DNA of 64,000 nucleotides, from assembly GCA_043228905.1 (NCBI GenBank), contig JBHGNT010000003.1:12648001-12712000 (forward strand). Direction: 5' to 3'. Made by a program: the position numbers and the translations under genes. Shown piece after piece: positions 28,156-64,000 of this stretch (position 1 is its first letter; every line of letters starts with the position of its first letter). The DNA is from Azolla caroliniana. Its lineage: Eukaryota; Plantae; Polypodiophyta. The notes below the pieces were generated by a model. That model made no database searches. It was not told the origin of the DNA and saw only the letters and a program-made list of their open reading frames with translations.

Positions 28156-30623
28156 TAAATGCACGAATCTGGTATCCTCTGGTCGGAGGCCCCGGGTACC
28201 TGCCTCAAGTTCACACATCTTTGTCGTATTTTCACGACAACAGTTTTCCCCTTTGATCGGGTCATGACTTGTTGTACATCGGTGACTTCGGCTATAACCA
28301 TATTTACCACCGATTGTTTTACCTTAATCTTGACCGGGGCATGGCTGCTGTAATGCCCTTCTTGTCGGCAATAATAGCAATATACTTTCCGGGCCCTGCT
28401 CGATTCACCTTTATATTCGCCTGTCGGTTGCATATTAGGAGTCATCTAATTAATTTCTTCTGGTCTTCGTTGCTCCGGATGTGCTACTACTTTACTTGTG
28501 TCAGGCCCCCAATGGTACTCTTGTTCCATGTCCCCGTGCTCATTTATCCGATTGTAATTCCTACGTCGGTTGCGGCGTTGGTACCCTTGCCTATCCGGTA
28601 CCCCTTCGATCTATTCCTCTTCTCCGGTCATACTCTGGAGAGTAGTCTCTATCATATCGGACCCGAGGGTACTCATCCTTCCTTCGGTCATCGTACTGGA
28701 ATCATCCCTCCGATCTATATTTATCCTCTCTCCGAAACTAATCATCTTCTGGCCTCCGTTCTTCTTGAGGCTCTATCTACCTTACCGGCACTGCCTACCG
28801 ATTCAGCATGCTATATTCGCATCGTTCGATGTTATGTGCCTGTGAGTGGCGTAGTGCACACTACGTTCGCATTGTACATTCTAAACTTGAATGTCTCAGA
28901 TTGAGGCATGTTGTACATTGTATTGCCTGCCGGAATTGGAGGTCCTCCTCTCTGGGTAGTGCTCATTGTAAGGCTCCCATCGCCATGTGATTACCATTCT
29001 GGGCTTGATCCATGTCGAGCACCCGATCAATTACTTGATTGATACTACTGGTTCTAAAATCCAAAACCGCCAAAGTAGTCTGGAGTGGCTCTCTTAGAGC
29101 TGTCAAAAATATTTCTTTAACCTCATCTTCTAGGAGCGCTCGCGTCAACTGTTTGTGAAGATTCTGAAATCAGATGATAAACTACAGGTACTATTTCATG
29201 CGCCTCTTGATAGGTGGCATAAAATTTTCCGATTAATTCCCTTTGGGTGACCTGTCGGTGAAATAGCCATAGGAACTTGTCCCTTAGGGCCTGGAATGTC
29301 ACAAAGTCCCCTGGGTTATGTTGGCACTACCATCCTGTGGCCTGTCCGTCTAGGGATAGCCCAAATTATTTCTCCACGTCAGGTTCCACAAGCCGCTGAG
29401 AGACATGGTTGGCTTCCCATGTCACTAGGAATGTGTGGGCGTGTACTTCCACGTCAGGTTCATCCTAGTACTTTGGATACATGCACGACATGGTATCGTC
29501 TTCTTCGACATGTTCTGTTGCCAATATGATTTCTTGTGCCGGTGGTGTCAGCATTGAATTGTCTTCCTCTATCGGTGGTTGTTCCAGAATAACTTCTTTC
29601 GGCAGCACCAGATTGACTTCCTCTACCAGTGTCGTTGGAACCAGAATTACTTGTTTAGTTGGAAGTGTTGGTGTTGTAGTTTCCGACTCCGGTGTTGGTG
29701 TGTGCTCGGACCCGTCTTCCGTCGGCTCTTCCAGAGTATTGTGACTGGATCTATAATTCGAGTGGGCGTGCCGCTCGTTGTTGTCCGATCCCAACTCAAA
29801 TGCGGAAAAGGATTCTGAATCACCAGCTCATGTTGCTAAAGTCTGCAATACCGATTCAACGTCGATCTGACCAGTAAGGTTGCTTCCTTCTTTTGAGTGT
29901 TGTTGAGTTTGAATTAGGATTGTCTCATCTACAACCTACCGAAGCACTCTGGGATAAGATTGATCCTGTCGGATTTCTTCTACCGCCTGTTGGTAAGCTT
30001 CCTGCCTCCGTAGTCGGTCAACTAGTCTTCTCGCTCGTTTAGCCACTGGGTCGTTCGTTTGTCCATGCATCCATCCCCCATTGTTCACTACTCTGTGCAG
30101 AAATCGTGGCCGCCAAAACTGTGTTACTTCTAGGTTGGACTCACCGCAAACACAAGGTATTCCATTCCAGAATACTTATCCAAATGGGTGGTTGGAGTTA
30201 TGGATTATGATTCTTCAATCATACACTTATAAATATACTGTTATTTTCCGGATTGCCTTCCGAACACATACAACGTATCCGACACTTAATTACATGTGTA
30301 AGATCACAATATATAGCACAAACGGCAAGTACACAAGATAGAAAACAAGATAAAAAATCCACTATATTACTCGCATTACTTTCGTATAAGATACATCAAT
30401 CCGGATCCTTTATATGGGCATCCGGTAAGTAGTTGAAAACGGTGCCTCGTCTGACTGCCGATTACAAATGGTGCAGATCTGGATCGATACAACTATCCGG
30501 ATCCCTCATTTCCTTAATCTAAATTCTCTATAATATATTATTAATATCCGGATTTATCCCTTTCTGGTTCACACCTCCGCCTCCGGTTCATACTCTTCTT
30601 AGGTCAACACTCCACCGATAACA
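28156..30623 (-). mobile_element. 5' part of a non-chromovirus Ty3/gypsy: 5' LTR 30122-30623 and degenerate gag
   Basis: Zinc knuckle CYYCRQEGH at ~28350-28385 and gag KEIFLTALREPL at ~29080-29120. LTR termini TGTTAC..TAACA. PBS-like TGGCGGCCACG on the minus strand at ~30105-30115. Confidence 0.7.
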
Positions 30624-33408: not shown

Positions 33409-33479
33409 AGGGCACAGAAATAGCGTAAGTAGATTACGTAGAGTAGAGGAAGAGTAATTAATATCTGTGTAAGCAAGGC

Positions 33480-35387: not shown

Positions 35388-36299
35388 GCAAGGATGGAGG
35401 CCAACACCACCATGTCCATATGGGTTCCCATGTCCATGTCCCGTCCCAAAGCAGGAGAGGGCTTAGGACGGAAGGGCTCATCAACAATTCCATTTCATTG
35501 CTTCCCAGTCCCATTAAAATTCAATGCAATTCATCTATTCATGCTCATGCTCATGCTCATTCTTGCCTGCCTTCTTCTAGGCGTTGTACCTCCACCCCAT
35601 TTCTGAATTCCTTTGTTTTTGGGAGACGGATCTGCATTGTAGCACACACATAGTATGTCACTACTACTACCCTAAACTTTTCTGGGGAGGATGAGTGGAG
35701 ACAAACTGTCAAAAGGTATTGTACTAAGATGGATGTATACATTTGGTAGCAAGCCTTATGTATTGCTATCTATGAGCAGGTTGAATGTGGAAAATAGAAG
35801 ACTGTCTCAAGATGCAAATACTTTGTGTACATTGAAAGTGGAAATTAGAAGAGTGGTTTGACTTTGCTTGGGGAAGCCATCCTTATGGGAAAATCTTTTT
35901 ACTGTGGGGCGGAGATGGATGATGTTAAAAGATGTTGAAGCAGTTCTAGGGAGTGACAAGGCGATAGATTATGTTTCATTTACTTTTCAAATTTGGAGAG
36001 TGGTTTTCTCATTTTTTTGGGAAGGATGAGTGGAGACAATTGGTACCACGTTGTAGTTGTAGCTAACTATGAACAAGTTGAAGAAGGTCGATGTTTCACA
36101 ATGCAACTTTTTTGTGTGGAGACAAAGTAATGGAAGACGCTAGAAGGCTGCCATATGACGATCATCTTGTGTGTTTTACCCATGAGGAAAGAGGGCAAGC
36201 TTGAAAAGGAAAAAAATAAAAATAAAAACATTCAATGATATTCAATTTGAGATGTGGTTTCTTGGATGTACGCTAGGTGTTGATATTTGTTAGATACAC

Positions 36300-40250: not shown

Positions 40251-42194
40251 GGGTTTCTTACCTTAAGGCATGCTTAATGTTCCAACACCTAATTGATTAT
40301 TATTCTAATTAATTTCTAATTACACAAATTGTTGTTTCACTTTTCAAATTGTATGATTTTCTCACAATTGTCATTTACCCACCCACAATTAACTCTCTTT
40401 CCCCCCTTCCTTTTAATGTTTAAAGTATTTACGTGCGTTTACCTATGATGTAACACTTCCGTGCAGACTATTTTTTTGTATTGAGTGGGCATCATGCCGT
40501 TTTTTAAACGGTTTTTCCCAACGTGTCATCTAGGTTTAACTCATATTATTAAGCCTTAGAACTCAAGTGAAACCACATGAGTTTCCCTATTGATGTTTTA
40601 CTCATAAATTTGAGTACAATACCACCACCATTTGTATCAACTTGTGGCTTATATCACAATTGAGCAAATTATAACCATCATAGTGAAATGTATATGTGCA
40701 TACCTCGCACAATCCATTTATTTGTGACATTGTTTCTTTTTTAGTAGGTAGTACATGGGTTTTTTTTTAGCCTTGTTTTCGTCACTGTTTAACTCTTATA
40801 GGTAGTGCCTTATTTTATCGTTTTTATCATAACATTTGCTTGTTACTCGCAAGACTAGAATATTACTTGCGAGTGCACTTGTTTTTTCACGTAGTACACT
40901 TTCTCGACCATATCAATACATGTTGGGTTGGCATTCTAATATAAGGCTAACTAGGAAAATACATTGATGTTGAACCATGATTATTCAAGTTAGAGATCTG
41001 AGAAAGACATCTTAGCTATGTTTCCCCCCATGGTTTGTAAAACATGATAGTGTTACCATAGTTATTGGATATTGAATCACATCTCATATGTCTAGAGGGG
41101 TAAAGACGTGAGATGCTTTCTTGGTGAAGTTCTTCCAATCAAAATTTCTAGCATTCATTTTGCTTATGTATTTTCTGAACCTCCTTATTTATATTGCATA
41201 CCCATAGCTTGCATCATGGAACAAGTTTTGAACGTTGTTGGAGCGATCTCTCCGACCGAGACCACTCAACTCCAATCTGCATCTCACACACAAGCTGAGG
41301 TCTCTATTGAGCAATTGCTCACTACTACCTTGAATGAATTGGCCGAAATGAGGCAAGCCACTATGGCATTGGAAAAGAAATTCCAAGAATTGACTATTGA
41401 GTCCAAGAAAGAAGGTGAACCTTCTTTCGCAGTCACGTCATTCAAAGGAGATACGAAAGAAAGAACCTTGGAGGCCATTAGCACTTGACTTGGTCGTTGG
41501 GAGACTCACTTTGAGCTCCACCCCAAACCCGATGCTATCAAAATTGGTTATGTCGGTCGCGAGTTAGGTGGCCGAGCTGCTTGGTGGCGCGGCCTAAGGA
41601 CTACGAAGAACTTACCCACAACTTGGGAATGTTTCGTTGATGTTTTTAAGAAATAGTTCTTGCAACCACCTTCTCAAACCGAACAAATGCAACACTTGTT
41701 CACGTTGTTGAGTAAGCCATTTACCTCTCTCGAGGATTATGTGCATCATACTCAAACCTAGATCTGAAAATCGGGACTTCCGGGTGAGAAATGGTTTGTC
41801 ACTTGCTTTTTTAATGGTATTCCCAATGGGGATTACCATTGGATTGTCCATGACAAGGACCCCACAACTTTCGAGGAAGCCCTCAACATTGTCCTTCGGT
41901 ACCATAGGACTTCCAAGAAAGAACACAATAAACTTGAGTTCGCCAAAACTCCGAATGTGAAGTTCATTGGGAAACGTAACCCATCCAGTGACACTCTTGA
42001 CCATGACTCCAAGAAACTGAACCTCTTCTATGCATATTGCAAGAAGCGGGGCCACACAAAGGATACTTGTCGTCGTCTTGAGAGTGTTAATAATAGTACT
42101 AAAACAGAGAGAGAATCAATACTAGAGAAGGGAAGTACTATTAGTACTAAGAGGACTGACTGCATAAGACTCACGAGAGAGGAAGAGAGAAAAG

Positions 42195-42225
<31 letters not shown>

Positions 42226-42473
42226 TGAGGGTGAGAGACAGAGAGGATGATGATAACAAATGATATATTATGTGAAGAGTAAATACAAAATAGCTATGAG
42301 GCTTAAGATTAGCGTTGAACCAATTTGGTTCGAAATAATGCCACGTGCCTCCTTTTATAGTGTCCTCAGGAGTAGTCCTGAAGTTTCTAGAATGTTCCAG
42401 AGAAATCTAGAATATACATTAATTTTCTATTGTAAAACTTACATGAAAATAATACCCTATGTATTACAATTGA

Positions 42474-42528
42474 TAGTGTAATGGTCAAGAGCTCGACCCA
42501 TATAACATAAGGTCATGGGTTCGAGTTT
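42474..42528 (+). promoter_or_regulatory. Pol III-type A box/B box pair in the 3' LTR, antisense to the element
   Basis: TAGTGTAATGG at 42474-42484 and GGTTCGAGTTT at 42518-42528, spacing 44 nt. Confidence 0.6.
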
Positions 42529-45500
42529 TGCTATATCATGACACTATCCCCCCTTAAAACGATGAGTGTTACAAGTCAGCGTTGATTGGGGACCAAGTTT
42601 GTCTAGATACTGTCGGTGGAAATCAACAAGAAGATCCTGAGCATTGGCGACATGCTCGACAGGTTCCCAAGTACGTTCGCTCGAACTATAGCCTAGCCAA
42701 TCGACCAAATAATAAAGTTTTTTGCGAACAAACTTGGAGTTGAGGATGGCAGCAATTTCATACTCCGGGCCGGCATCCAACTCAAGCGGGGGTGACGGTG
42801 GTGTAACACGATCGGGAATAGTGTTGGCTTGATAAGGTTCGAGAAGAGAACTATGGAAGACCAGATGTATTTGAAGCGGCGGAGGAAGATCAAGGCGGAA
42901 AGTGACATCATTAATCTTGCCGGTAATACAGAAAGGACCGAGTTGTCGATAATCCAATTTGTCGCATGGTTGAGTAGTCTTCATGTGAAGACGTAAAAGC
43001 CCCATACTCAATCTCCGATGGAAAAAGAGGAGGGAATCCGATGACGATCTGCATAAGTCTTCTGTGTGTGTTGAGCATGACGAAGATGAGTAGATAGATC
43101 TGTCTGAATCTTGTGTAGCCTCTCCAAATGATCCTCGGCACGAGGATTGGTAGGTAGCTTCGGAGTGTCGATCACAGACCAATGAGGATGAGAACCGGTG
43201 TAAGCGTAAAATGGGGAGACTTGAGTGGAGGAGTGAATAGCGTTATTATAAGCAAACTCAGCAAAGTGGAGAATATCAGCCCAATCGTCTTGTTGATAAC
43301 TCAGAAAACACCGAAGATATTGTTCCAGCGTTTGGTTTGTTCGTTCCGTTTGCCCATCAGTTTCGGGATGATAGCCAGAGGAGAGGTTGCAAGAGACCTT
43401 GAGCATCTTGAAGAGATGCTTCCAAAATTTGGAGACGAAATGAGGTCCTCGGTCACTGATGATACTGTCTGGGAGGCCATGATGCCAAAAAACCTCATGC
43501 ATGACAAGGGCGGCAGTTTCCTCACTTGTGATGGCTTTAGTACGAGGCACAAAATGTGCCATCTTAGTATATCGGTCAACGACAGTTAAGATAGCATCGA
43601 AGCCTTTCCAATCTGGAAGATCTATGATAAAATCAAGACAAATGGATTGCCACGGCTTACTTGGAATTGGTATGAATTCCAACAAGCCATATGGATGATG
43701 TCATGGTATCGTTGCTCGGCAACAAGCATCATAGGTCCAAACGTAGTAGTCGACAAAACATCGCATATGGGGCCACCAAAAAGATCGTCGGACTAGATCC
43801 AACGTCTTAGTACTACCGAAATGTCCACCTGTATGGGTTTCGTGACAATTTTGGACGATTTGAAGGCGACAGGAGCAATCGGGAACATACACAAGATTTT
43901 TAAAGAATAATAAACCATCATGATATTCGAATTGTCGGTAGTCCATACCTGGTTGTTGAGACTGGGAACAAGATGCCTGAGAAGCATCAATTTGCGCTAG
44001 AATGGCTTGAGCAAAACTGTCCGTCTTCAAATTGGCACGTATGGCATCGATAATCCAAGAATCCAGTGGAGTGTGAAAAATCCGCGTTGTGTGCAAACGT
44101 GTTGGTCCCAAGATTACCTGCTTTTGATTATCAAATGCTGGATCACCAGGGCGAGGTGTAAGATATGAGCATCGCGATAGTTTATCTGCTTTTCCTTGTT
44201 GCTTCCCCGACCAATATGTGATTTTGAAGTCAAAACACGTGAGAAATTGGGCCCACCGAGCTTGCCGCCGATTTAGCACGTGAGAGTTTTGGAAATAAGC
44301 AAGATTTTTGTGATCACTAAAGACGATGACCTGATGAGGAGAGCCCTCTAAGAAGTGTTGTCATTGCACAAACGAATCCACAATGGCTAATAACTCATTG
44401 TCATGTATCTTGTAGTTAATTTCCGCGGCATCAAATTTGCGCGAGTGGAAAGCCACAGGATGTAACTCTTCTTTATCTCCTTGTTATCAAAGGATGCTAC
44501 CGAGGGCGAAATCCGATGCGTCGGCCTCCATGATGAATGGTTTGTTTGTATCCACATGAGCTAGAATAGGAGCTGATGTAAAGGCTTTCTTAAGATGCAT
44601 AAAATCCATGTCCGCTTCATTGGACCAAAGAAATGATTGTCCCTTCCTGGTAAGTTGTGTGAGAGGCAAAATAATCTTCGAGTAATCTTGTATAAACTTG
44701 TGGTAGAAGTTAGCGAAGCGTAGGAAACATTGCACATCGCGTAACGAACGTGGAGTTTGCCACTCTAGCACAATTTTGACTTTAGTTGGATCCATGGAGA
44801 TGCCTTTTGAGGAGATGACATAGCCTAGAAATTCCATTTGCTTGCAGTCAAAGCTACATTTTTCTAGTTTGGCATAAAGACCATGCTCTCGGAGTCGTTT
44901 TAGTACTAATAGTACATGAGAATCACGCTATTCTTGGGTCTTCGAATAAATCAATAGATCATCTAGATAGATGATCAAACAGATATCCAAGATGTCTTTG
45001 AATATAGCATTTTCCATGTGCTCGAAGACTGTGGGTGCATTGGTTAGACCGAACGCCATAACGGTATACTCGAAGTGCCCACTTCCATTCGTCTCCCGGT
45101 CGGATCCGCACGAGGTTATATGCTCCTCGTAAGTTGAATTTTGTAAAAAACTTGGCACCATTTACATGTTCTAAAAGACTTGATATAAGGGGAAGTGCAT
45201 ACCTATTCTTGATGGTGACCTTATTCAAGCTGTGGTAATCAACGACAAGACGAAGGGATCCATCTTTCTTCTTGACAAAGAAAATGGGTGCACTGGCCGG
45301 AGATTTCAAATGACGAGTAAACCCTCTTGCCAAATTCTCCTCTATGTAGGCTCGAAGGACTTCCATGAAACAGGATTTGGCTCTAGAATCTAAAAGTGCT
45401 AAGACATGTACTAGAGGGGTACTTTTACTACTAACCATGACTTGGGCTAAGAACACATTGCTAATTTGCTTAGAGGGAATGGAACCTATAATGGGTTGCA

Positions 45501-46620
45501 CAGATCTAGGGTTGTCCAACCAAACGACTCCTATTTTGGCTGGACTTAGTTGTTTAACTCTTCCTTTAATTGACTAACAATTTCAAATTTGTTTGAGATA
45601 CTTGGGCTATCAGTACTATTAATATTATCAGACACTCCTAAGGGAATTGACTCGGGTTTAGTATAGGCTACAATTTGATTTACCTGTCTTCTTGGCCTAT
45701 GGGGACAATTGATTGTGATATGCCCTAGTCCACCGCAATAAAGACATAATCGATTTGCACGTCGTTGTTGCTTTTCTTCTTCTAATAACAGGCCACGTCG
45801 ATGCATGGTGTCAATTTCCATCGGTGTCGAAGTATTTGCCTGAGATACATCTCGTGCAAACAGTTTAGCTGTGATTGAGGCATATGTGGGCTCTGACCTA
45901 GTCCGTGGTATTTGTAATTGTCGTTCTGAACGTCGTTCAAAAAGGTGGTTGTCACATCGAACCGCTCGACTGATTGCTTCTGTTAGAGATTTTGGTTCTT
46001 CGGGGAAGGTTAAAAGTAAATCTTTGACATCGTTTTGCAGGCCGTAGGGAAATTGCTCCATTAGTGCTCGATGATCCCAGGGGATATCTGAGGCGAGTAG
46101 ACGGAGAATCCGCCGTGTAGGCAGAGGCTGGACAATCGCTTTGATGCAATCGTTGGATCTTGTTGATCGTCGTTCTGATGCTGTTGGTATCTCTAAAGTA
46201 GGCTTTAAACTCGCTAATAAAGTCTTCAAAGTTATTAAGCAAGGGAGATTGTTTTTCTGAAAGCTGAGCGAACCATGCCAAGGCTGAGCCGCTGAGCAAC
46301 GTGCTTATTAAGCCTACTCGGGATGCATCAGTGGGGTATCGGGAAGGATACATCTGAATGACTAAACGTACTTGATTAAGGAATCCTCTGAATTGTGATC
46401 GTGTTCCGTCGAATTTCACAAGAAGTCCAATCTTGGCTCTTTATGAGGTCCTTGGGGACTTGATCCCTGTTGTTGCAACGCTACGATGGTTGCTTTGAGT
46501 TATTGCACACTTAACATTAACTCCCCATGTTGCTGTTGCAACTCCCCATGTTGTTGGTGCGTTTTTTGTTTTTCTAAAGCAATTTGTTGAAGATTCCCTA
46601 ACAATCGTTGGTTTTCTTAT

Positions 46621-49600
46621 TGTTGGGATTTCGGTCCCTCCGGATGGGATGTCTGGAGATGAATGACGGCAAGCCCGGAGGCCGTTACGGAACCAGGTGA
46701 TGAAGAGTACCCGGCATGAAGCCGGATGAAGAGTACCCGGCTACGGATCCGGATGATGAAGACCCCGGTTACGGAGCCGGATGCTGAATACCCCGATTAC
46801 GGAGCCGAATGCTGAATACCCCGGTTACGGAGCCGGATGACGAATGTACCCGGAGAGAGAGATCCGGATGCGGGGACATATTTGTGAATATGTTTTGCCA
46901 AGAGCCCTTGAGGCTATATTTGTAAATAGCCCGAAAGTCATATGTGTATAAATATGACTTAGGGCAAACAGTTTTATGTCGTTGTTGCTCATTTTTTATG
47001 CGAAGAGAGAGAGCAGCCGAGAGAGAAAGAGAGAGAGAAAGGAAGAGGTCGATGCCTCTGTGTATTGCCGCCGCCTGTGGCGAAGACAGTGAGCTCAAGG
47101 TTGCTGCCTTGTAGCTTCACCATTGTACATCTCTGTTTATAGTGATAGTTGGAGTTTGAGGACTCCCGTGGTTTTTCCCATTTAGGGTTTTCCACGTAAA
47201 ACATCCTGTGTACCTTTCTCTCTGTTGTCTTCGTGCAGTTTGTATTTCCTGTTTTTCTGGGAGTTGATCCTATTCCTCGGTTGTGGCCGAGCATTGTTTT
47301 CAACAAATTGGTATCAGAGCGACGGTAACCCAGAAAATGGAAGGCGGCAGCAACGGGCAGCCGGGGATGATGGTGCTGAATGCGCAGAACTACGCCGACT
47401 GGAAAATAAAGATGGAGGATCTCCTCATTGTTCGGGACCTGTATGAACCGATCGACAGGTCGGAAATACCCAAGGGGGTACTTGAGACGGAATGGAGGCT
47501 TCTGAACCGGAAAGCCGTTGCAACCATTCGGCAATACGTCGACGTGAGCGTTCTACAACATGTGGCGAACGACACCAATGCATATGAGATGTGGCGGAAG
47601 CTGTCGGGCCTCTACGAGAGGAAGAATGCGTTGAACCGGACCTCCCTGATGAGGAAGATAGTGAACCTCAAGTACCGGGACGGCGAGAGTATGGTGGAAC
47701 ACGTAAGCACGTTCATGGGATTCGTGAACCAGCTTGCGGCGATCAAGTTCCCGTTGGAGGATGCAATGCAAGCCATCATTCTGATGTGTACATTGCTGGA
47801 AAGCTGGGAGAACTTGGTGGTGACTCTCAGCACCTCCTGCACCGAAGATAACTTGTCTCTACAAACGGTAAAGACAAGCATTTTGAACGAAGAAGCGCGT
47901 CGGAGAGATAAAGAACCGGCCTCCGACTCGAAGGCGCTGCTTACCGAATCGGAATGGGGAAGACATCGGAACCGGAGTCCGCAAAGACGGGAGAAGTCGG
48001 GGACCCGGTCGCAGTCAAGAGGAAGGCCCACATGCTTCCACTGTGGGAAGACGGGGCACTTCCGGAAGAATTGTCGGCATTACCGAAAAGACAACGGAGC
48101 CGACGACACCGATTCGAAGAAGTCACTGGAGAGAAACGGTGCATACCGGGGAGCCACGGACCGGAGAGGTCCGGATCGGCGAGGGCAGGACCGGAAAGGA
48201 ACGACGGCACTCGCGGCAAGTGAAGAAGAGATAATGCTCATTACCGAAGAGAGGGAGCTGAACCTTGCCGGTGTAGAGATGACCTGGGTGGTCGATTCCG
48301 GAGCGTCGTTCCACCTGACCCCGGAGAAGAAATACTTCTCATCCTACACAGCCGGTGAGCATGGCTGTGTCCGGATGGGAAATGAAGGTACATGTCGGAT
48401 TGCCGGCATAGGAGACGTGTGGCTGATGACATCAACCGGATGCAAGATGCTGCTGAAGGATGTTCGACACGTTCCGGAGGTCCGATTGAACCTGATCTCG
48501 GCCGGGAGGCTAGACGATGAAGGCTACACGGGCAGCATCCGGAACGGTGTCATGAAGTTCAGCAAAGGGAGCCTGATAGTGGCTCGGGCCCGGAAGGTCA
48601 ACACACTGTACCTGATGAATGCCCGGTTATGTCCGGAAGAGCTGAATGTGGCAGCCGACACTGCCGGTGAGCTGTGGCACAAAAGACTATGCCACATGAG
48701 TGAGAAGGGGATGAAGAGGCTTGCAGAAGACAACCTTATTCCAGTGAAGCATGTGCACCTGGAGAAGTGCACCGACTGCCTGGCCGGTAAGCAAAACCGG
48801 ACCTCCTTCCACTCAAGGCCACCGACGAGACGTAGCGCACCATTGGAGCTGGTGCACACTGACGTGTGTCAAGTAGAAACGAAGTCACATGGCGGAGCCC
48901 AATACTTCGTGACATTCATTGATGACCACAGCCGGAAGCTGTGGACGGCACCGTTGAAGACAAAGGACCAAGTGTTGTGCGTCTTCAAAGAACTCCACGC
49001 GAGAGTGGAAAGGGAATCCGGCAAGAAGCTGAAAGCGATATGAGCGGATAACGGAGGGGAATACCGGGGGCAGTTCCAGGAGTACTGTCGCTCGAAGGGA
49101 ATCCGGCTCGAGTTTACTGTGCCGAAGACGCCGGAACTGAACGGGCTGGCCGAGAGGATGAACCGGACCATAATGGAGAGGGTCCGGAGTATGCTAGCAC
49201 ATGCGAAATTACCCAAGGGATTTTGGGCTGAGGCAATGTCGACGGCGACGTATGTGATAAATAGATCACCCTCAGTACCTTTGGACGGAGACACGCCGCA
49301 GAAAGTGTGGACCGGTAAGGAAGTGTCCTACCGGCATCTGAAGGTGTTCGGGTGTCTCGCATACGTGCATGTGGCAAAGGACCGGAGAGGAAAGTTAGAT
49401 CCAAAGACCCGGCCATGCATATTCCTCGGTTACGGCGACGACGAGTTCGGCTACCGAGTATGGGACCCGGTCGACAAGAAGATATTCAGGAGTCGAGATA
49501 TCATCTTCATGGAGGACAAGACACTCGCCGACTGGGAGTCGGAGAAGAAGATGAAGAGCTCCAAGTCGACCGGTGAGGATCAACTCTACGAGGAGCAGTC

Positions 49601-52104
49601 CCGACCGGCAAGGGACCGGTTAGTACTCGAGGACCCGGCCGAAGACGGTGAAGAAACAGAACCGGCCGAAGAAGATGAAAATGATACCGGAACCGGCCCC
49701 GATCCCGAAATGGATTCGGATGAAGAAGAATCGGAAGAACCGGTTACCGAAGCTCCGGAACGGAGATATCCTCTAAGAGAGAGAAGGGCCCCCCGGAGAT
49801 TTCCGGAACCAGAGCACGTGCTGCTAACCGACGAGGGGGAGCCGGGAGCTTTGAAGAAGCAAAGCATGACACCCAGAGCCGCAGGTGGTTGAGTGCCATG
49901 CAGGACGAGATGGATTCCCTGCATGAGAACCACACATATGAACTTGTGGAGTTGCCGAAAGGAAAGCGGGCACTTCGAAACAAGTGGGTGTTCAAGCTGA
50001 AACCGGGAGATGCCGGAAACCCCCCGAGATACAAAGCCAGGATCGTGGTGAAGGGGTTTCAGCAGAAGAAGGGCGTCGACTTCGAGGAGATATTTGCCCC
50101 GGTAGTGAAGATGACCTTCATCCGGACGGTGCTGAGCATAGCGGCAAGCATGGACCTCGAGGTAGAACAGATGGACGTGAAGACGGCATTCCTTCACGGT
50201 GACCTCGAAGAAGAGATCTACATGCAGCAACCGGAAGGATTCGAGAAGAAAGGGAAGGAGCACCTGGTATGCCGGTTGAAGAAGAGCCTTTACGGACTGA
50301 AGCAGGCTCCCCGGCAATGGTACCGGAAGTTCGACTCCTTCATGACCGACGAAGGGTACCACAAAACGCAGTCCGATCACTGCGTGTTTGTGAAGAAGTT
50401 CGAAGGAGGAGACTTTCTAATACTCCTCCTATACGTGGACGACATGTTGATCGTCGGACGGGACCAGGTCAAGATACGGACGCTGAAGAAAGCGCTTCAT
50501 CGAACCTTCTCAATGAAGGACCTGGGTCCGGCGAGGCAAATACTAGGGATGCACATCATCCGGGACCGGAAGAAGAAGCAGTTGTGGCTGTCACAGGAGA
50601 AGTACGTGACAAAGGTGCTTCACCGGTTCAACATGTCGGAAGCAAGACCGGTCGGGTCAACCCTCCCGGCAAACTGCAAGTTGTCCAGCAAGCAAAGCCC
50701 CAAGACAAAGGCTGAGAAGGAGGACATGATGAAAGTACCATATGCCTCTACCGTCGGGAGCTTGATGTACGCCATGGTGTGTACGAGACCGGACATAGGA
50801 TATGCAGTCGGAGTGGTGAGCCGGTACATGAGCAATCCCGGCAAAGAGCATTGGAACGCGGTCAAGTGGATACTTCGATACCTGAAGGGCACATCAAACG
50901 TGTGCCTCCGATTCGGCTCCGGTAAGCCCGAACTCGACGGCTTCACCGATTCGGATATGTCGGCTGACGCAGATACTAGCCGGTCCACATCAGGGTATGT
51001 GATGACGTATGTAGGGGGAGCTGTTTCATGGCAGTCGAGGCTGCAGAAGACGGTTGCGTTATCAACCACGGAGGCGGAGTACATGGCGGCCGTTGAAGCC
51101 GGCAAGGAAATAATATGGATGAAGGACTTCATTAGAGAGCTCGGTATCCGGCAGGAGGAGTACCGACTCTACTGCGATAGTCAGAGTGCCATCCACCTTG
51201 CGAAGAACGCGGTCTACCATTCCCGGACGAAACACATCCAGCGTAGATACCACTGGATCCGGGAAAGGATAGAAGACAAGGAGTTCGTGCTGACGAAGAT
51301 CCACACGGACGATAACGGGTCGGATATGCTGACCAAGGTGCTCACATCCGACAAGCTGGAAGCATGCCGGAAGAGGATCGGGTTGGAGAGACATCCCATG
51401 CCGAAGTGAAGGGGGAGTTTGTTGGGATTTCGGTCCCTCCGGATGGGATGTCCGGAGATGAATGACGGCAAGCCCGGAGGCCGTTACGGAACCAGGTGAT
51501 GAAGAGTACCCGGCATGAAGCCGGATGAAGAGTACCCGGCTACGGATCCGGATGATGAAGACCCCGGTTACGGAGCCGGATGCTGAATACCCCGGTTACG
51601 GAGCCGGATGCTGAATACCCCGGTTACGGAGCCGGATGACGAATGTACCCGGAGAGAGAGATCCGGATGCGGGGACATATTTGTGAATATGTTTTGCCAA
51701 GAGCCCTTGAGGCTATATTTGTAAATAGCCCGAAAGTCATATGTGTATAAATATGACTTAGGGCAAACAGTTTTATGTCGTTGTTGCTCATTTTTTATGC
51801 GAAGAGAGAGAGCAGCCGAGAGAGAAAGAGAGAGAGAAAGGAAGAGGTCGATGCCTCTGTGTATTGCCGCCGCCTGTGGCGAAGACAGTGAGCTCAAGGT
51901 TGCTGCCTTGTAGCTTCACCATTGTACATCTCTGTTTATAGTGATAGTTGGAGTTTGAGGACTCCCGTGGTTTTTCCCATTTAGGGTTTTCCACGTAAAA
52001 CATCCTGTGTACCTTTCTCTTTGTTGTCTTCGTGCAGTTTGTATTTCCTGTTTTTCTGGGAGTTGATCCTATTCCTCGGTTGTGGCCGAGCATTGTTTTC
52101 AACA
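46621..52104 (+). mobile_element. Young full-length Ty1/copia (Tnt1/Tork-like), same family as 14816-20100
   Basis: 685-bp LTRs at 46621-47305 and 51420-52104, with about 4 transitions seen by eye. TSD CTTAT, PBS 47309-47321, PPT GAAGGGGGAG before 51420. Confidence 0.98.
47337..51409 (+). pseudogene. Nearly intact copia gag-pol
   Basis: All domains are present. There is a TGA at 49041-49043 (CGA in the sister copy) and a 1-bp frameshift at ~49846. Confidence 0.93.
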
Positions 52105-52636
52105 CTTATTCCAATGCAACAAATTTTTCTTTTAGACACTGAAGCTCGAAAAAAACGGATTGATATTCTTGGGTGCTAACAATAGCCATAGTATTGGAAA
52201 AAGCCGTAAGAGGATGAGGGAAACCGAAAAGGAGACTAGAGGGAGGAAATTTGGTTCAAACTGTCAAGAATAGTACAAAAATAGACAGAGAATTAGTACT
52301 AGAGAAGGGGAGTACTATTAGTACTAAGAGGACTGACTGCGTATGACTCACGAGAGAGGAAGAGAGAAAAGGAGAGAGAGAGAGAGAGAGGGCGAGAGAG
52401 AGAGAGAGGATGATGATAACAGATGATATATTATGTGAAGAGTAAATACAAAATAGCTATGAGGCTTAAGACTGGCGTTGAACCAATTTGGTTCGAAATA
52501 ATGCCTTGTGCGTCCATTTATAGTGTTCTCAGCAGTTGTCCTGAAGCTTCTAGAATGTTCTAGAGAAATCTGGAATATACATTAATTTTCTATTGTTAAA
52601 CTTAAATGAAAATAATATCTTATGTATTACAATTGA

Positions 52637-52691
52637 TAGTGTAATGGTCAAGAGCTCGACCCATATAACATAAGGTCATGGGTTCGAGTCT
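52637..52691 (+). promoter_or_regulatory. Pol III-type A box/B box pair in the 5' LTR, antisense to the element
   Basis: TAGTGTAATGG at 52637-52647 and GGTTCGAGTCT at 52681-52691. Confidence 0.62.
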
Positions 52692-54522
52692 TGCCATATC
52701 AATCTACGAGTCACACAGGTGAGTCTTTTGATGTTATTGAAGTTCATACTTAAGTTCATGTGAATGCACTTTTCTTTCTTGGACCTAATGATTTACTCGG
52801 AGCAATCGGGTATATCAATGGAACACAAGCACATTTCTTGTTTGATTCCGGTAATTCTCACAATTTTCTTAATGATCACTTTGTGCAGCAAATGCAACTC
52901 CACATAAACACAAGTGATCATATCTATCAAGTTCACATGCAAAGTGGAAGCATTCAATACATCAGTGGTATTGTTTGTCAACTCCCAATTCAAATAGATA
53001 CCTATTTGGAGAAGCTTGACTTTCATGTTATGAAACTACAATCCGTAGATGCCATTTTAGGATACCCTTGGTTTTTTAATAAAAACCTTTCTTTGTCCAT
53101 TGATTGGGTTAATCACTTAATCACATTTGAACTTAATAATTGTAAACATTTTATTTAATGTTCCAAACTTCCTTCTCGTTCACTTGTGTCTTCTAAATCT
53201 TTAAGTGAGTATTCTAGTTTGTTAATTTATTTGTGTGTAATTCATCCTGCGCTTCAGTTTTATTATTTTAATATTGAAGCCACAAAATTACCACATTATG
53301 AACAACAATTAATCGACTGTATTTTAGAAGATTTTCAAGATGTGTTTCCTAACGAATTTCCGCTTACTTTACCACCAAAACATAATGTGGACCATCAGAT
53401 TGAAGTCATCCCTAGTGTTGCTCCTGTGAGCATTCCACCTTACCAACATAGTCGATTAGAAGAGGATGAGATCTCGAAAGAACTTAAGGAATATTTAAGT
53501 ATGGGCCACATTAGGTATAGTAAATCACCTTGGGGTGCGTCGGTTCTATTAGTTAAGAAGAAGGAAGGTTCATGGCGAATGTGTTAAAATGCATATCCGT
53601 TACCTCGTGCTGATGATTTAATTGATCGTTTGCATGGGCCCTGAAATTTTACGAAAATTGACTTACGAACAGGTTATCATCAGATTCGCATTGCCGAGGA
53701 TGATATTCCTAAAACCGATTTTCGTACGCGCTATGGCCATTATGAGTTTTTAGTCATGCCTTTCAGATTGACTAATGGTCCAACCACATTCAACAAGCAA
53801 TGAATGATGTTTTCCGAGATCAACTCGGTGATTTTGTTGTCATCTTCTTGGATGATATTTTGAGATATAGTCGTACCTTGCAAGATCATGTTCAACATGT
53901 TTGATTTGTTTTGCAAAAGTTGCGTGAAAACTCTTTCTATGCAAAACATTCAAAATGTGATTTTTTCCAAAACTCTATTGTGTACCTAGGTCATTTAATT
54001 ATGGAAAAGGGCGTTGAAATTGAACCTTCTCATATTGAAAAGGTTAAACTTTGGCCCATTCCTTGTAATATTCGTGAACTTCGATCATTCTTAGGATTTG
54101 TTGGATTATTACGAAAATGAATTCGTAATTATTCTAAATTGAATATGCCATTAACTGACCTTTGAAAAGGTCATCCACATAAGTCTATCAAACCAATTTC
54201 ATGGAATGAACAACTTGACAAATCATTTGAGACACTGAAAGTGCATGTGTGTGAGGCTCTAATTCTTCTTTTACCGGACCCTTCCAAGCCTTTCTCAATC
54301 AAAACCGATGCTAGTCATTATGTTATTGGTGTCGTCCTTTATCAAGGTGGTCACCGTATTGCTTTTCAATATCGGTATTCGATTCAAGAGAAAGAGTTGT
54401 TCGTGGTAATACATGCACTAAAAACATGGAGACCTTATCTCTATGGAAATCAATTTATGGTTACAACGGACCATCAATCCTTGAAGTATTTTTGTGACCA
54501 ACCAGATCTTGTTGGTCGTAAA

Positions 54523-57500: not shown

Positions 57501-58102
57501 AAATCCAACCAATTTTTGCTTACATGTCTTTCATGAGGGAAAGGCAACCTGTTTTGCTTTCCATATTGACATGCTTCACATATTTAGCTCATCTCACAGT
57601 CTTTGAGCTTAGGCAGTCCAACCACTGCATTCTTCCTCAACATATTTTTCAATGTTTGCATACTTATGTGACCGATTCTTTTATGCCACATTTCCACTTC
57701 TTAGATGACACTCATTCCTTCTGTAAACATGGTTGTAATCTTCCTAGGCATATCCACATCTAACACAAACATTCTTCCTTGATGTTCTCCTTTTGCAATA
57801 AGTTTTCCCTGTTTCTCTATAAAGCATCCACTTTGCTTAAACTTCACTTGTATTCCTTGCTCCACTATCTGTTCAACAGAAATCAGATTTTTTGAAAGGT
57901 TTGGAACATGCATCACATTCAACATATACTTTGTTTTTCCTTTTTCTTCCCACAATGGGATATCTCCAACATGCTCTATTTGGTGAGTAATATTATCACC
58001 TGTCTATACATAACCAGGAATCTCTGGATCTCTTAGAGTTTCAAACCAGTTTTTATGTCCTATCATATGATTAGATGCCCCAGAATCTACATACCACATA
58101 AA
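54523..58102 (-). mobile_element. AT-rich Ty1/copia 3' part (PR-INT-RT-RNase H, 3' LTR 54523-54963), same lineage as 4664 and 23111
   Basis: PPT complement CTCCCCCTT at 54964-54972, RNase H 54982-55614, RT 55911-56627, INT 57242-57547. Cut just upstream of the protease motif WYVDSG by the 58103 LTR. Confidence 0.9.
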
Positions 58103-61100
58103 TGTTAATCCTTAGGGCTGGACAATGGCCTAACATAGGGTGTCTTCGGAAGACACTTCACCAAAGAGGTGTTATGACGAGATAACTTAAGATACAACGA
58201 TTAATCCGACTTAATTGGCTACTTAGCAATAAGGCATTCACTTAATACACGCATAAGATATAACAATTAATACTGAACGGTAATCAATACGTGAAGATAA
58301 AACAAGAAGCTTATATTAATTCTCCGTTAAAGTTTTACATTGTAACCGGGCCTTTATATAGGTCACCGGTGCTGCGTACAAAATAGTGCCAACCGGCACC
58401 CGTTCGAAACCAATCCGGATCCGGATCGGCATACCGATTCCGGTCCGTCCGTTCACTCCATAATTATAATCTATTCTAATTAATTAAAATATATTCCGAA
58501 TAACCATCCCTTTCACATTCTGGTCTTTAACTCCTTTGCCGACCGGGTAACACATGGCACGCCCGTGGGACAGTACCTTGTACGTCGAATCCCACTATCT
58601 GGCCCATAGCCTTCGTCTAAGATATCCAGAATGCTCTGCTCCAAGGTATCCAATGGTTTTTCGGAACTCTGTTGTTGTTGTTGTTGTGGCTGTTGTTGTT
58701 GCTATGGCTGTTGTTGTGGCTCCGGCTCCTCTGACTGTTGCTCCTTAGATGGTGTCTGTTCGGCTCCCGGTACCGGTAGTTGTGGCGGTGATTCCTCCGT
58801 TAGCTGCTCTGCCGGATTTGACTCCGGTTGACTCACCCCGGCCTTGTTTCCGTCTGGTCCTTGCTCCGGTGATGGCTCGTCATCGCTGAGGTTGACGGTC
58901 GCCACCTGCTTTGCTTCTTCTCTCCATAGCCTGGTCCGTTCATAGCTTTCAAACTGGATTTGAGCATCCAATCGATTATCATCTAGTTGTGCTACAAGTT
59001 GCCGGACCACTGCTGACTGTTCCGCCACCAGAGTTACAAAATCCTCGGCTAACTCATCTCTTACGGCGGTGAAGTCCTCCTTTGTTAGCATGTAGCAGTA
59101 GTCGCCATCCTTCTGCCGGTTTTTCGCGTCCGCCCGTAGCAAGTGGAGCTCGGCTGTGTGCTTTGCCCATTTGTCCCACCATTGCGCGGAGCTTTCGTCA
59201 ATCAAGCATTTGGCCTTGTTCCTCCATGCTTGGACAATGAACTGGATCCGCTCCAATCCCATCTTTGATTTGTCCTCCGCGGCTTGCCGTTTGTCCTTCA
59301 ACTGCTTGATGAGTGCCACCGTATCCACCTCCTGCTCCCGGTAATGTAGCCTTTGCAATACCATTGTCACTCATTCCTTCTCTTCATAATGCTGCTTATG
59401 GAGCTCCATCCGTTCTTGCGCGGCTTCCTCTAGTAGCGTGGTTCTTTCCGCCCGTTCCTCCGCCAGCGCCGTCTCAACTCGATGCACCTCCTGCCAGAGC
59501 TTTGCCATCTTCTCCTGCTGTTTCTTATGCTCCGTGTCCAAGTGCTTGTAGTCCCGGTGCAGGTGCTCAAAATCATCGGTCTTCTGCTTCTGGTGGTTGA
59601 GTTGCCGGCGAGCACGGTCTTCCCGATCCTTCTGTTGATGGAGTTCTTCTTTCAGTCTTTCGATCTCTGTTTCCGCCATCCGTCGCAGCTTCTCCTTTTC
59701 TTGCAACGCCTTCTCTTTCTCCTCCTTCAGTCGGTCATAGGCCTGATGTCCTTTCCACAGATTCTCTTCTGCCTGGCGGAGGTTCTCAGTAGTCTTTCGT
59801 TGCTCTTCTTTTGCCGCTTTTTTCAAGTCCTGCTCTCGGGTGCGTAATGCTTCCTATGTGGCCAGTTCATCTCTCAATTCAGCAAGCTCTTTTGCTTGCG
59901 CCGCCACTATCTCCAGGACTAGTTCCATCTCCGGGGTCTTAATGTTATGTACAGGTGCCGATGCTTCCTTATTCTGTACATCTACTAGAGTCACCGGTGC
60001 TTGGATCGGTGGTCCGGTTAAGGCCATTTTGGCCAATTCATCTGTGGCCAGGTCCAAGTCTTGTTCTAAGCTCCGGATCCTTAACCGGGCCTTCTGTAGT
60101 TCTCCGGTTGTGACGAGCAACCGGTCCACCTGCGCTTTCTCTTCCGCCTCTATGTAGTGTACCACTTCGGCAATCTGTTCTCCAATCCACCGAAGCCATT
60201 GGCTGTCGGTGCCCTGTTGTTGCATCTGCCCGGAGGGTTGGTTGTTGGTGTTGCTCGCTAGTAGTCGGTTTTGTCTGGTTGCGTCGAGCTGCAACTCTGG
60301 CTCTTGTTGGTGACCACTTTGCCGTTCTGGTTGCGGCTCCGTTGGCCGCTCCGGCTCTGAATGCTCTTGGCCTATGGGTGGGGTAGGCAACTGTACTCCG
60401 ACGCTTGCATTTCAGGTCGTGTAATATCCTGACCCGCCGGTAGAGGTTGTTGTGCAGGGAGCTCTGTGACCGGTTCTGTCCGAACTGGTTCCGGTTCCAT
60501 CCTTGGTGCGGGCTGCTCAGTGCGGGGTACATGCGTTCCATCCTTCTTTGGGTCCGAACGCTCCTCGGCATGTTCGGAGGTGCTTGCCTTTTGGCGCCGC
60601 TGGAGGTGCTCTAACGATTCCTCCTCCGTTTCCTCCTCCTGAGTCCCGATGTTGATTTTCGTTGCCACGAGGTCTGGCGCTTGTTGAACCGGTTGGTGAA
60701 GCCTGATCTTGATTGGCCGTACCGGTGGCTCCTCTTGCGATTCCGCTTGCCGCTTCCTATTGGCGCGCTCCTTTGCCGCTTGGTCTGTGTCGGCCGCCTT
60801 CCCTTTGGTTGCCTCAGAAGCCAATAGTTGTTGCCGTTTCGAGGCCGTTTCCGGGGTGCCTTCGGTTGTTCTTCCCCGCTTCGTGGTCTTGACGGGCTCG
60901 ATAGGTGGCGCTAATAGGGTGAGCCCTTGCGCCACTGCCGTCCATATCTTCTGACCCTCCTTGCCTCTGACAGAGTTGATGGCCGAACAGAGGCCATCCG
61001 CAATCAGTACTGCCCAGTCCACCTTCACGCCTTCAAATGTGGCTATGATTAAGCCGGTTCGGTTCTGGGGCATGCACGGGGGTCGAGGGTATACATATCC

Positions 61101-64000
61101 AAATTCATGGAGCACACGAGCAATCTCTCGAAAGAGTGGATCTTCGCCGGCTTGTGTCTGGTAGGCCTTGTTGGCCAGAGAGTATTCCCCAAAATATTTT
61201 CAGAGCTGCTCCGGGGTAGGGTTGTCGATGGTGAAGATGCCCCCCTCCGGAAGGCCAATCAACGCATGGATGGCCTCCTCCGTGATCAGCTCCATGTCGA
61301 TTTCTTTGACTATCTTCTCCACCTCTCGGTGCGGTGGTGCCTCCATGATTGTGAGGAAACCTTCTAACCCGTGTTGCCTTAGCCACTTCTTGGCTGCTTC
61401 AGAGAATGCTTGGCAGTCCATGGCTTCGTCGAGGTCGGTGAGCGCTGGTGAGGGTTGTGTGTGAGGAGTCTTTGTGTGCGTGGGCTCGCGTCTGCTGGTC
61501 TTCAATTGCTTGTCTGCGTTTGTGCTCCTCTATTCGCGAAATGTGAGGGTTTCTATGTGGCGAGGGTTTTCTTGTTGCATGTTGGCTCTTGTTTTTTCCT
61601 TACCCGTGCGTGTTCACGTCGTGTACTAAAATAGAATGTCGTGCCATGTGGCGGCGGTTTAATACCCTATTAATAGCCCACTACGTACCTTTTCAAAGTG
61701 CCTATTCACTCCTTGTTCTTGCATGTGTCCGTTCACCCCTCACCCTTGCATGATTTACTTTGATTTGATTTGATTTGAAATTATTTATTTATTTATATAT
61801 TTTTAATTTTATTTTTTTTAAAGATAACAATGGTTTTGTTAATTCGCATCCGGTCCCACTGGACCCCTATCCGGATTGTGGTCCTTGCCGGCCGCTGGAC
61901 TTCTTGCCGTCGCATCATTCTTGTCGTTTACCAGCTCGTGCTCCCTCTTACCGGCTTCACGTTTGCCGATTGCTAAACGTGTTGCCGTCTCTTCCGACTT
62001 ACTGGTATCCGGTTCTGTGTCGTCCTTTACTTGTTCAAATGGGTTTCTTGGCATGGGTCCATTGTATGGTTTGAGTCGGAACCCATTGACCCATTGACCC
62101 AGAACCTAGCTGGCAAGTGTCCCTAATTGGTAGGAACCGTTGAACTCACGCATAATCCAGTATGGTCCGGTCCACCGAAACCGTAGCTTTCCCGCATCTT
62201 ACCCATCCGGGTCTGGAACACGAGTACCGGCTTACCGATTCCGAACATCTTTTCGTTCCCTTTTCGGTGACGATCCACGAACGCTTTCCTTCGCCGCTGC
62301 TCTAGTTCTAGGTGCATGATGCTGACTAGCCGGTGTTCTTCCAATTCGCACAACGCGTTTAACCGGATAGCTTCCGATTCCTTCTCATTTAGGCGTTCCC
62401 GAATCTGTATTTGTAAACTCGGTACCTGGAACTCTACCGGCATCACTACTTCCAATCCGAATGCTAGGCAAAACGGTGTTGTGCGGATACTTGTCTTATA
62501 TGCCGTTCGGTAGGCCCAGAGTGCACTATGCAGCTTTGTATCCCAATCCGTCCGGTTCTCATTGACGATTTTTCGTAGGATAGTCTATAGTGTTTTATTT
62601 GTGGACTCTGCTAATCCGTTGGCTTGCGGATAATAGGGAGTGCTCCATTTGTGCACCACCGCATAAAATGTCGTCAAACTTTCCACTACCTGCCCTAAGA
62701 AGTGCCCACCTTGGTCACTTATGAGCTCTATCGGACATCCATACCAGCACTAGATGCATTCATATAAAATTTTTGCCGTGGATGCTGTGGTGTTGTCGCG
62801 TAGTGCTTTCGCTTCCACCCATTTCATGCAATAATCCGAAGCGACAATCACGTACCGGTTGTTGGTTCTCATTGCTGGTGGTTTGAATGGACCGACAAAA
62901 TCCCGGCCCCATTTTTGAAATGGTTCTAACGGTAGCACGGGCTAGTGAGGCATTCTTGTTTGTTCGGTTGGTTCGCCCATTCGTTGACATAGGTCACATT
63001 CTGTAGCGTACCAGACTCCATCCTTCAATGTTGTCGGCCACCATAGTCCACTCTGCCATATTTTCATTGCCATAGCGTCTTCGGCATAATGTCCTCCAGC
63101 CACGCCGCAGTGTGTTCACGTAATATTATTTCCTTTTCGTTGTTGCACATTGCATGCCGCCATATGCCATCTGCGCCTTTGTGGTACAGTGTCTCCTGTA
63201 ATAGGCAGAAGTGCCAGCTTTGAACCGCTAAGCGTTTCCTTTCATCTCTGTTCATCTCCTCTGCTCAGAAATTGGTGCATGTTGGTGAGCCACTTGTCTT
63301 CCTTTGCGACCGTACTATCCGATGCCGTTTCTGTTGTGACTCTAAACAGCTCTGCATCCGGAAAGTCGTCTGGGACGCCGTCAACGATTTTGCTAGAATC
63401 TAACCGGCTTAAATAGTCTGCTACCGCATGTCGTATGCCAGGTCGGTGGAATATCTCGAACTCGAATTCTTGTAATAGTAACGTCCACCGGGCTAGCTTA
63501 CCGGTGAGTGATGCTTTGGTCACCAAGTAGAGAAGTGCCGAATGATCTACGTGAAAGGAAAATTTCCTTCCCAACAGATAGTGTCTAAACTTGGTGACAC
63601 TGTAGATCATACCCAAAGCCTCCCTTTCCATTGTGGAATAATTACATTCCACTTGGGACAGCTTCCGGCTGGCATAATAGACTGGCTGGTACCAATTTGG
63701 TTCTGTAAGTTGCATCAGTGCGCTTTCGATTGTGATGTCGGACGCGTCAACGAACACATAGAACTCTTTAGACCAATCCGGAGGTTGCACCACTGGCGCT
63801 TGTGACAATAGAACTTTAAGTGCCCGGTAAGCCTGGTCTTATGTGTCCGTCCATCGGAACGATGTCCGATGTACCGCGGCATACAATGGTGTAGCCAGGT
63901 CTGCCAGATACCGGAGCATTCGGCTATGCCACCGAATTTGTCCTAAGAACTGGCTTAGTGCCTTTGCCGTGGCTAGTTTCAGTGCCTCTAGGATTGCTTT
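58103..64000 (-). mobile_element. Non-chromovirus Ty3/gypsy 3' part: RT end, RNase H, INT, extra ORF, 3' LTR 58103-58552
   Basis: RNase H FYVFVDASD..EREALGMI (63242-63808) and integrase PFQKWG.DFVGP (62750-62938). LTR TGTTA..TAACA is colinear with the 30122-30623 LTR. Confidence 0.88.
58600..61505 (-). pseudogene. Extra (non gag-pol) ORF of the gypsy element, coiled-coil rich, frameshifted
   Basis: Contiguous same-strand ORF chain 61200-61505, 60372-61115, 59854-60390, 59371-59826 and 58702-59370, lying between the integrase and the 3' LTR. Confidence 0.7.

Follow-up and report, generated by a model that had tools for sequence, protein, structure and literature searches.

The window, that is, the whole stretch of 64,000 nt of Azolla caroliniana DNA that was analysed, carries on its minus strand the 3′ part of a Ty3/gypsy element, comprising a pol remnant, an extra open reading frame (ORF), a split copy of the 3′ half of a tRNA-Arg(UCU) and a 3′ LTR (Table 1). 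Read on the plus strand, LTR end 58552 is followed by two bases, a 17-nt core beginning with TGG, a 13-nt insert and the distal copy of 15 nt, which has one extra base in the subfamily of the window. The core, which by its letters is an inverted primer-binding site (PBS) on minus-strand DNA, was found where the initial annotation had placed it, two bases inside the LTR, and the assignment of pol and the extra ORF to the minus strand held for RNase H, integrase and the extra ORF alike. The core occurs once in the window, the chance expectation being 0.06 even at up to 3 mismatches. Relatives of the extra ORF are 972-1194 aa long, and positions 58103-61884 are colinear with a metagenome contig (L009) at 81%. 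As had been claimed, other 3′ LTRs of the window possess a G-rich polypurine tract (PPT), which is true for each of five such LTRs, whereas the 3′ LTR at 58103-58552 has none, with purines at 8 of the 15 nt before it.

Table 1. Parts of the element at 58103-64000 and of a related element in the window.
Feature	Position	Strand	Remarks
3′ LTR (TG...CA) of Ty3/gypsy element	58103..58552	minus	TATA-like box at 58353-58360 in gag-pol sense
Spacer of 2 nt between tRNA-like CCA and LTR	58553..58554	minus	letters variable
17-nt copy of tRNA-Arg(UCU) positions 59-76 including CCA	58555..58571	minus	one base missing at the T-stem/acceptor junction
13-nt insert between tRNA positions 59 and 58	58572..58584	no strand	4-bp covarying hairpin, 58573-58576 with 58580-58583
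T-loop, 5′ T-stem strand and part of variable loop (positions ~45-58)	58585..58599	minus	15 nt
Extra ORF in gag-pol sense	58620..61580 (limits approximate)	minus	stops and frameshifts; no Pfam family
pol remnant (end of RT, RNase H, integrase)	62037..64000	minus	stops; 65% identity to L071 polyprotein
5′ LTR of related subfamily	30122..30623	minus	relative L051 (67%) has the inverted motif
Sense PBS of related element, tRNA-Arg(UCG) type	30106..30115	minus	one mismatch; then gag
gag of related element	29503-28741	minus	44% to L071 gag

The LTR at 30122-30623 precedes a minus-strand gag and is followed by its own PBS, as the initial annotation had stated. The colinearity that it had seen between this LTR and 58103-58552 is only loose, with 270 identical of 603 alignment columns including flanks and no significant BLASTN match between the two LTRs; the orientation of 58103-58552 is settled by other data. 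No tRNA gene was detected in the window with ARAGORN, and a search of the window against Rfam returned nothing but two sub-threshold snoRNA matches. The window additionally contains two young Copia copies in opposite orientation (14816-20100 and 46620-52104; 93% identity), the LTRs of each being more than 99% identical. The second copy is nested in a chromovirus (42085-52701), and an ankyrin-repeat gene lies on the plus strand between retroelements (33462-35653).

Orientation and complete copies of the element

All sequence evidence used here is taken from assembled contigs. Metagenome contigs were scanned for the junction with a search pattern in which the core was fixed, and the matches, all from one accession series, amounted to at least 124 in at least 121 loci. 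Runs under four organism labels contain the junction: the motif occurs under A, B and D, and label C contributes 4 contigs with it. In run X15, which has hardly any words in common with the 4 kb of the window, 201 contigs carry the motif, and 5 contigs do so in run X16, whose RNA origin is a guess, so that these 5 are no guide to expression. Viral contigs yielded neither a relative of the RNase H nor a match to the core, and prokaryote genomes yielded no relative of the RT-RNase H region.

Four runs from four studies were aligned to positions 57950-58850 of the window for the analysis of loose ends. Contigs whose loose end at the outer edge of the LTR contains a sense PBS were obtained in three of the four runs, i.e. 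X1 (19 contigs), X3 (30) and X8 (11), among the 24 of 640 rows listed. The same LTR therefore precedes a PBS as a 5′ LTR and follows the inverted site as a 3′ LTR. Together with a whole element on another contig (L071), these data bear out the initial annotation of 58103-58552 as the 3′ LTR of a minus-strand element, and not as part of a separate element on the plus strand. In another set of loose ends, none of PPT type was among the 20 of 124 rows listed, a sample that leaves room for a PPT-bearing minority.

The whole element consists of a 5′ LTR, a PBS, a gag-pol polyprotein encoded by an open reading frame of 1797 aa in the order gag-(PR)-RT-RH-INT, an extra ORF of 1194 aa, the inverted site and the start of the 3′ LTR; it has both a normal 5′ PBS and the inverted site, and no PPT. 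Its 5′ PBS matches tRNA-Arg(UCU) over 13 nt, including the base that is absent at the 3′ site. A stretch of 55 nt of LTR is repeated at both ends, the remainder being cut off by the start of the contig, which is probably a collapsed assembly of many copies (its name gives a coverage of 151). A tRNA PBS after the 5′ LTR is present in the family, the 5′ LTR of the window's own element lying beyond the window, and the LTR ends of the window are the TG...CA of direct LTRs. No clean flank pair indicating a target-site duplication was found in ten contigs checked.

Among the matches listed, the 5′ PBS was of Arg(UCU) type at 16 of 25 junctions and of Arg(UCG) type at 9, with the same 3′ site in both; the subfamily of the window has the Arg(UCG) type. 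Derivatives in which no ORFs were detected also keep both sites (L006, L010, L011, L046, L055 and L067). Their internal regions measure 1.7-2.3 kb, no pol or extra ORF was detected in them, and they have a 10-nt 5′ PBS of either Arg type that is followed by a common 6-mer. An unrelated Gypsy pol (L042:1-2360; ~26% identity to the RT-RH-INT region of L071) appears to be nested, upstream of the extra ORF, in a copy of the family; its own 3′ junction resembles an ordinary G-rich tract, and pieces of this insert recur in the 30-kb element of the window (27391-27541 and 28041-28244). On one contig (L028:1014-1590) the motif occurs in both orientations ~557 nt apart, which represents either head-to-head copies or an assembly artefact. 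On another (L030: 1062-1137, 2756-2828, 3131-3171) one of two tRNA-Lys genes has a family junction at a distance of ~300 nt, a single case that is possibly due to chance.

With regard to strand, the packaged RNA might be the one opposite to gag-pol, the site being then an ordinary minus-strand PBS and the other PBS the inverted one. The tRNA match of 17 nt plus extension, longer than that of the 10-13-nt 5′ PBS, speaks for such an arrangement. However, among the matches listed, 17 of 51 LTR stretches have a TATA-like box in the gag-pol sense and none has one in the opposite sense, every ORF runs in the gag-pol sense, and a PPT is lacking at the other end as well, so that two tRNA sites would still be required; the arrangement is considered very unlikely. 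The extra ORF ran opposite to the motif in all 40 loci with an extra-ORF match within 1.5 kb (among the matches listed). One might take the uncorrected 1-nt gap as proof that the site is no minus-strand PBS; this was given little weight because, according to PMC5371799, the PBS of Ty1 and Ty3 is not copied from the tRNA.

Conservation of the junction and its match to tRNA-Arg

Among the matches listed, 100 nt of internal sequence were available for 113 junctions, which formed 33 clusters, and the spacing between LTR and CCA was 2 nt in 112 of 124 and 4 nt in the remaining 12. A 10-mer of the distal tRNA part was recognised with up to 2 mismatches at 84 of 114 junctions (among the matches listed) as compared to 1 of 1008 control windows. 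In the scanned loci the constancy of the core is given by construction, as it was fixed in the search pattern. In four runs with sequences not preselected by the core, X5 and X15 among them, no indel row was found at 1% and the commonest listed substitution accounted for 4.6% of the depth in X5 and 10% in X15, a comparison in which short gapped contigs may have escaped alignment.

The motif copies the 3′ half of plant nuclear tRNA-Arg(TCT), for which the sequences in PMC8662596, taken with CCA, were used. The 3′ end of tRNA-Arg(UCU) given in the initial annotation agrees with that of the angiosperm nuclear sequences of that source, and the motif fits this real tRNA 3′ end. The same 3′ half is present in a phage tRNA-Arg(TCT) (L122). 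Angiosperm and phage sequences served as references in place of the tRNA of the host. The phage gene (L122:298-391) is 94 nt long, with extra bases after the anticodon and a plant-like 3′ half. The supplements of a study on Selaginella tRNAs (PMC11573648) contained no matching sequence, and a match in PMC10226591 was rejected as a chance string match. Counted from the CCA inward, the core corresponds to tRNA positions 76-59 but lacks one base where T-stem and acceptor stem meet, the insert is located between positions 59 and 58, and the distal part corresponds to positions 58 to ~45. Position 58 is a methylated adenine, which blocks Watson-Crick pairing and stops reverse transcriptase (PMC13191261).

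A match with one missing base and small insertions had been described initially. The gap was confirmed; the 13-nt insert is a conserved covarying hairpin and not noise. In the 13-nt inserts (n=85, among the matches listed) 320 of 340 stem cells are Watson-Crick pairs, and the non-standard cells include 9 of A-C and 2 of G-T. The excess of A-C over G-T gives a faint tilt to folding in the element RNA, for which decay by deamination alone may account. In 27 distinct rows, chosen because their insert measures 13 nt and the start of the distal part is recognisable in them, all 4 pairs show two-sided changes. Their covariation score of 0.54 was reached by none of 500 shuffles, and slid controls scored 0.02-0.25.

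The two-sided changes and the shuffles also bear on the notion that the motif is a neutral relic of template switching to a tRNA, or that it is held in place because it encodes the last residues of the extra ORF. The extra ORF does read across the motif in some copies (P0151). Such an origin is hardly tenable in view of the covariation at 4 of 4 hairpin pairs and of the persistence of the motif in 33 clusters, in non-coding derivatives and, in the whole element L071, outside the ORF.

The purine content of the junction was low: among the matches listed, at most 60% of the last 15 nt before the LTR were purines in 116 junctions, all of them selected by the motif, and the longest purine run was 3-4 nt in 109 of these 116 motif-selected junctions. 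A PPT before the 3′ LTR, which is usual in Ty3/gypsy elements and unneeded for the superfamily label, was thus absent from motif-selected junctions. The initial annotation had allowed that most copies might have an ordinary PPT here; no junction of PPT type was seen, yet the junctions were chosen by the motif. A structured, lineage-wide cis-element stands in the place of the PPT.

Candidate primers of the plus strand

The architecture, the tRNA match and the hairpin covariation are observations, from which we infer a priming mechanism: in this PPT-less Ty3/gypsy lineage the hairpin-split tRNA-Arg(UCU) copy likely lets a host tRNA prime the plus strand. The genomic RNA has tRNA sense, so that it is the minus-strand DNA alone that could pair with the tRNA. 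Complementarity extends beyond the T-stem and was assessed in 31 of the 33 clusters, L044 and L064 being left out for poor anchoring. A partner for U48 is present in 28 of 31 clusters (expected 0.54, p 2e-5), for U47 in 23 of 31 (p 0.02) and for G45 in 22 of 31 (p 0.004), p-values that overstate independence as the clusters share ancestry; the partner of A46 is not conserved (6 of 31). The complementarity at U48, U47 and G45 favours a tRNA, since a hairpin in the element RNA offers these bases no partner. Co-folding of three motifs with the tRNA end of L122 gave in each case a two-part duplex with the hairpin extruded, at a net -29 to -39 kcal/mol as compared to about -9 for two tRNA-Lys controls, RNA parameters being used as a proxy.

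Both a host tRNA and a tRNA-mimic primer supplied by the element RNA had been proposed initially, and the complementarity past the T-stem tilts the data towards annealing of a host tRNA. As the leading alternative, the T-arm-like hairpin of the element's own RNA could instead escape RNase H, be cut after the CCA and prime the plus strand as a structured replacement of the PPT, making a second host tRNA unnecessary; this has a real though minor probability. The canonical logic of a genomic fragment resistant to RNase H (PMC5371799) would thereby be kept, the sense RNA folds a 7-bp T-stem hairpin, and the excess of A-C over G-T cells fits folding as RNA. The local folds, however, are no more stable than those of shuffled sequences (z -0.65 to 0.57 on the sense strand), the sense-strand folds contain no 5′ acceptor strand paired with the tRNA-like stretch, and the tRNA-Arg(UCU) letters at the acceptor-strand and variable-loop positions would remain unexplained. 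The copy of the T-stem self-folds on either strand, which counts against priming by a host tRNA insofar as it would compete with the tRNA.

The site might also serve in something other than plus-strand priming, i.e. in cis pairing with the 5′ PBS (for RNA circularisation or minus-strand priming), in strand transfer or in packaging. Where the 5′ PBS of a subfamily is of Arg(UCU) type, 10-11 nt of it are complementary to the 3′ copy, and a lentiviral 'primer over-extension sequence' that matches the tRNA past position 58 is connected with strand transfer (PMC13191261). The Arg(UCG)-type subfamilies, that of the window included, keep the same 3′ site although it is unable to pair with their own PBS, and this constancy across PBS types argues against pairing between the two ends. 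The plus strand would then have to start by another route, and a PPT substitute is absent from the LTR edge of the motif-selected junctions; roles of this kind are judged unlikely. The end of a plus-strand primer normally leaves a dinucleotide for integrase, and the fixed spacing of 2 nt between CCA and LTR fits this geometry of a primer end.

For priming by a host tRNA the following course is proposed. tRNA-Arg at the 5′ PBS would prime the minus strand in the usual way. Once strand transfer has taken place, RNase H would clear the RNA and the inverted site would be exposed as single-stranded DNA. tRNA-Arg(UCU) could then pair over ~28-30 nt with one tRNA base bulged, the hairpin looping out beside m1A58, a base incapable of a Watson-Crick pair. 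Extension of the CCA end by reverse transcriptase would produce a DNA end with 2 extra bases, which are normally trimmed by integrase, and the tRNA would be removed by RNase H. A successful, multi-species LTR clade has probably dropped PPT priming entirely, host tRNAs starting both strands and the second of them by way of a three-way junction with the hairpin extruded beside m1A58.

Plus-strand priming from a PPT is treated as a rule common to retroviruses and LTR retrotransposons (PMC5371799, PMC13191261). That a high-copy lineage has open reading frames and lacks a PPT shows that the rule can be broken, whichever primer serves; if the reading is true, the PPT would be no universal requirement of LTR retroelement replication. 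The site offers a short defined sequence for probing how reverse transcriptase and RNase H choose the second-strand primer. For annotation it has to be considered that the inverted site resembles a perfect PBS, so that tools based on PBS and PPT could call the wrong strand.

Comparison with known elements

The TG...CA LTRs, the tRNA PBS after the 5′ LTR, the order gag-PR-RT-RH-INT and a primer site at the U3 edge are shared with canonical Ty3/gypsy and retroviral systems (Ty3, PMC5371799; HIV-1, PMC13191261). While those start the plus strand from an element-encoded purine-rich fragment, a tRNA 3′-end copy with ~53% purines is found here. Binding of a tRNA in two segments, acceptor stem and T-arm, is known from the bipartite PBS of Ty1 and Ty3, with a small loop between the segments in Ty1 (PMC5371799). 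In Ty1 and Ty3, however, it is the genomic RNA whose segments are complementary to the tRNA; they serve minus-strand priming and are accompanied by a PPT (PMC5371799), whereas the new 3′ site, read on the gag-pol strand, is in tRNA sense and is not a bipartite PBS of that kind. Self-priming elements of Tf1 type also depart from standard LTR-element priming, but they alter the minus-strand primer and keep the PPT (bioRxiv 10.1101/2022.12.06.519325).

A description of a PPT-less element in which an inverted tRNA site takes over the position of the PPT was not found in the literature searched, in which subscription journals are incompletely covered. Extra tRNA-related sequence in the 3′ part occurs as a second PBS in micropia of Drosophila and as tRNA-like inserts in Cer elements of C. 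elegans; to our knowledge neither site replaces the PPT at the U3 edge. The literature search returned nothing on these two cases.

Among plant lineages, the lack of a chromodomain is shared with Athila, Tat/Ogre/Retand, Phygy and Selgy, the extra ORF between pol and 3′ LTR with non-chromovirus lineages, and the tRNA-Arg PBS with Ogre, TatIII and part of Retand (PMC6317226). An AT-rich spacer before the 5′ PBS is a further likeness to Athila (PMC6317226; 10.64898/2026.03.20.713144). Tat/Ogre/Retand differ by an extra RNase H of archaeal type, none of which was detected in the L071 polyprotein (Pfam, E 0.1). Athila differs by its tRNA-Asp/Asn PBS (PMC6317226), as opposed to tRNA-Arg here, and by a conserved PPT junction, the conservation being 97% in Brassicaceae Athila (ATHILAfinder, bioRxiv 10.64898/2026.03.20.713144). 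Phygy (tRNA-Trp PBS) and Selgy (tRNA-Ala PBS) have no extra ORF (PMC6317226). Chromoviruses carry a chromodomain at the integrase end, which is missing in L071 and present in another Gypsy element of the window (42544-43242). The element is a non-chromovirus Ty3/gypsy element, set apart by markers, as it does not conform to the markers tabulated for Tat, Athila, Phygy and Selgy in PMC6317226, a survey in whose main text the word 'fern' is absent.

A search of cluster representatives returned no named relatives and did not place the lineage. Atlas matches for pol were generic Gypsy clusters, and the nearest named relatives of the RNase H were from Adiantum nelumboides (54%), which makes a fern or another seed-free plant a plausible host. 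The sense extra ORF (58620-61580; P0124; L071:139-3723) encodes ~1000-1200 aa with a conserved N-terminal domain and a long charged helical region. No Pfam family was assigned to it; in Atlas, leads scoring below 0.9 pointed to Transposase_32 and ATHILA clusters, with a score of 0.84 for the ATHILA family.
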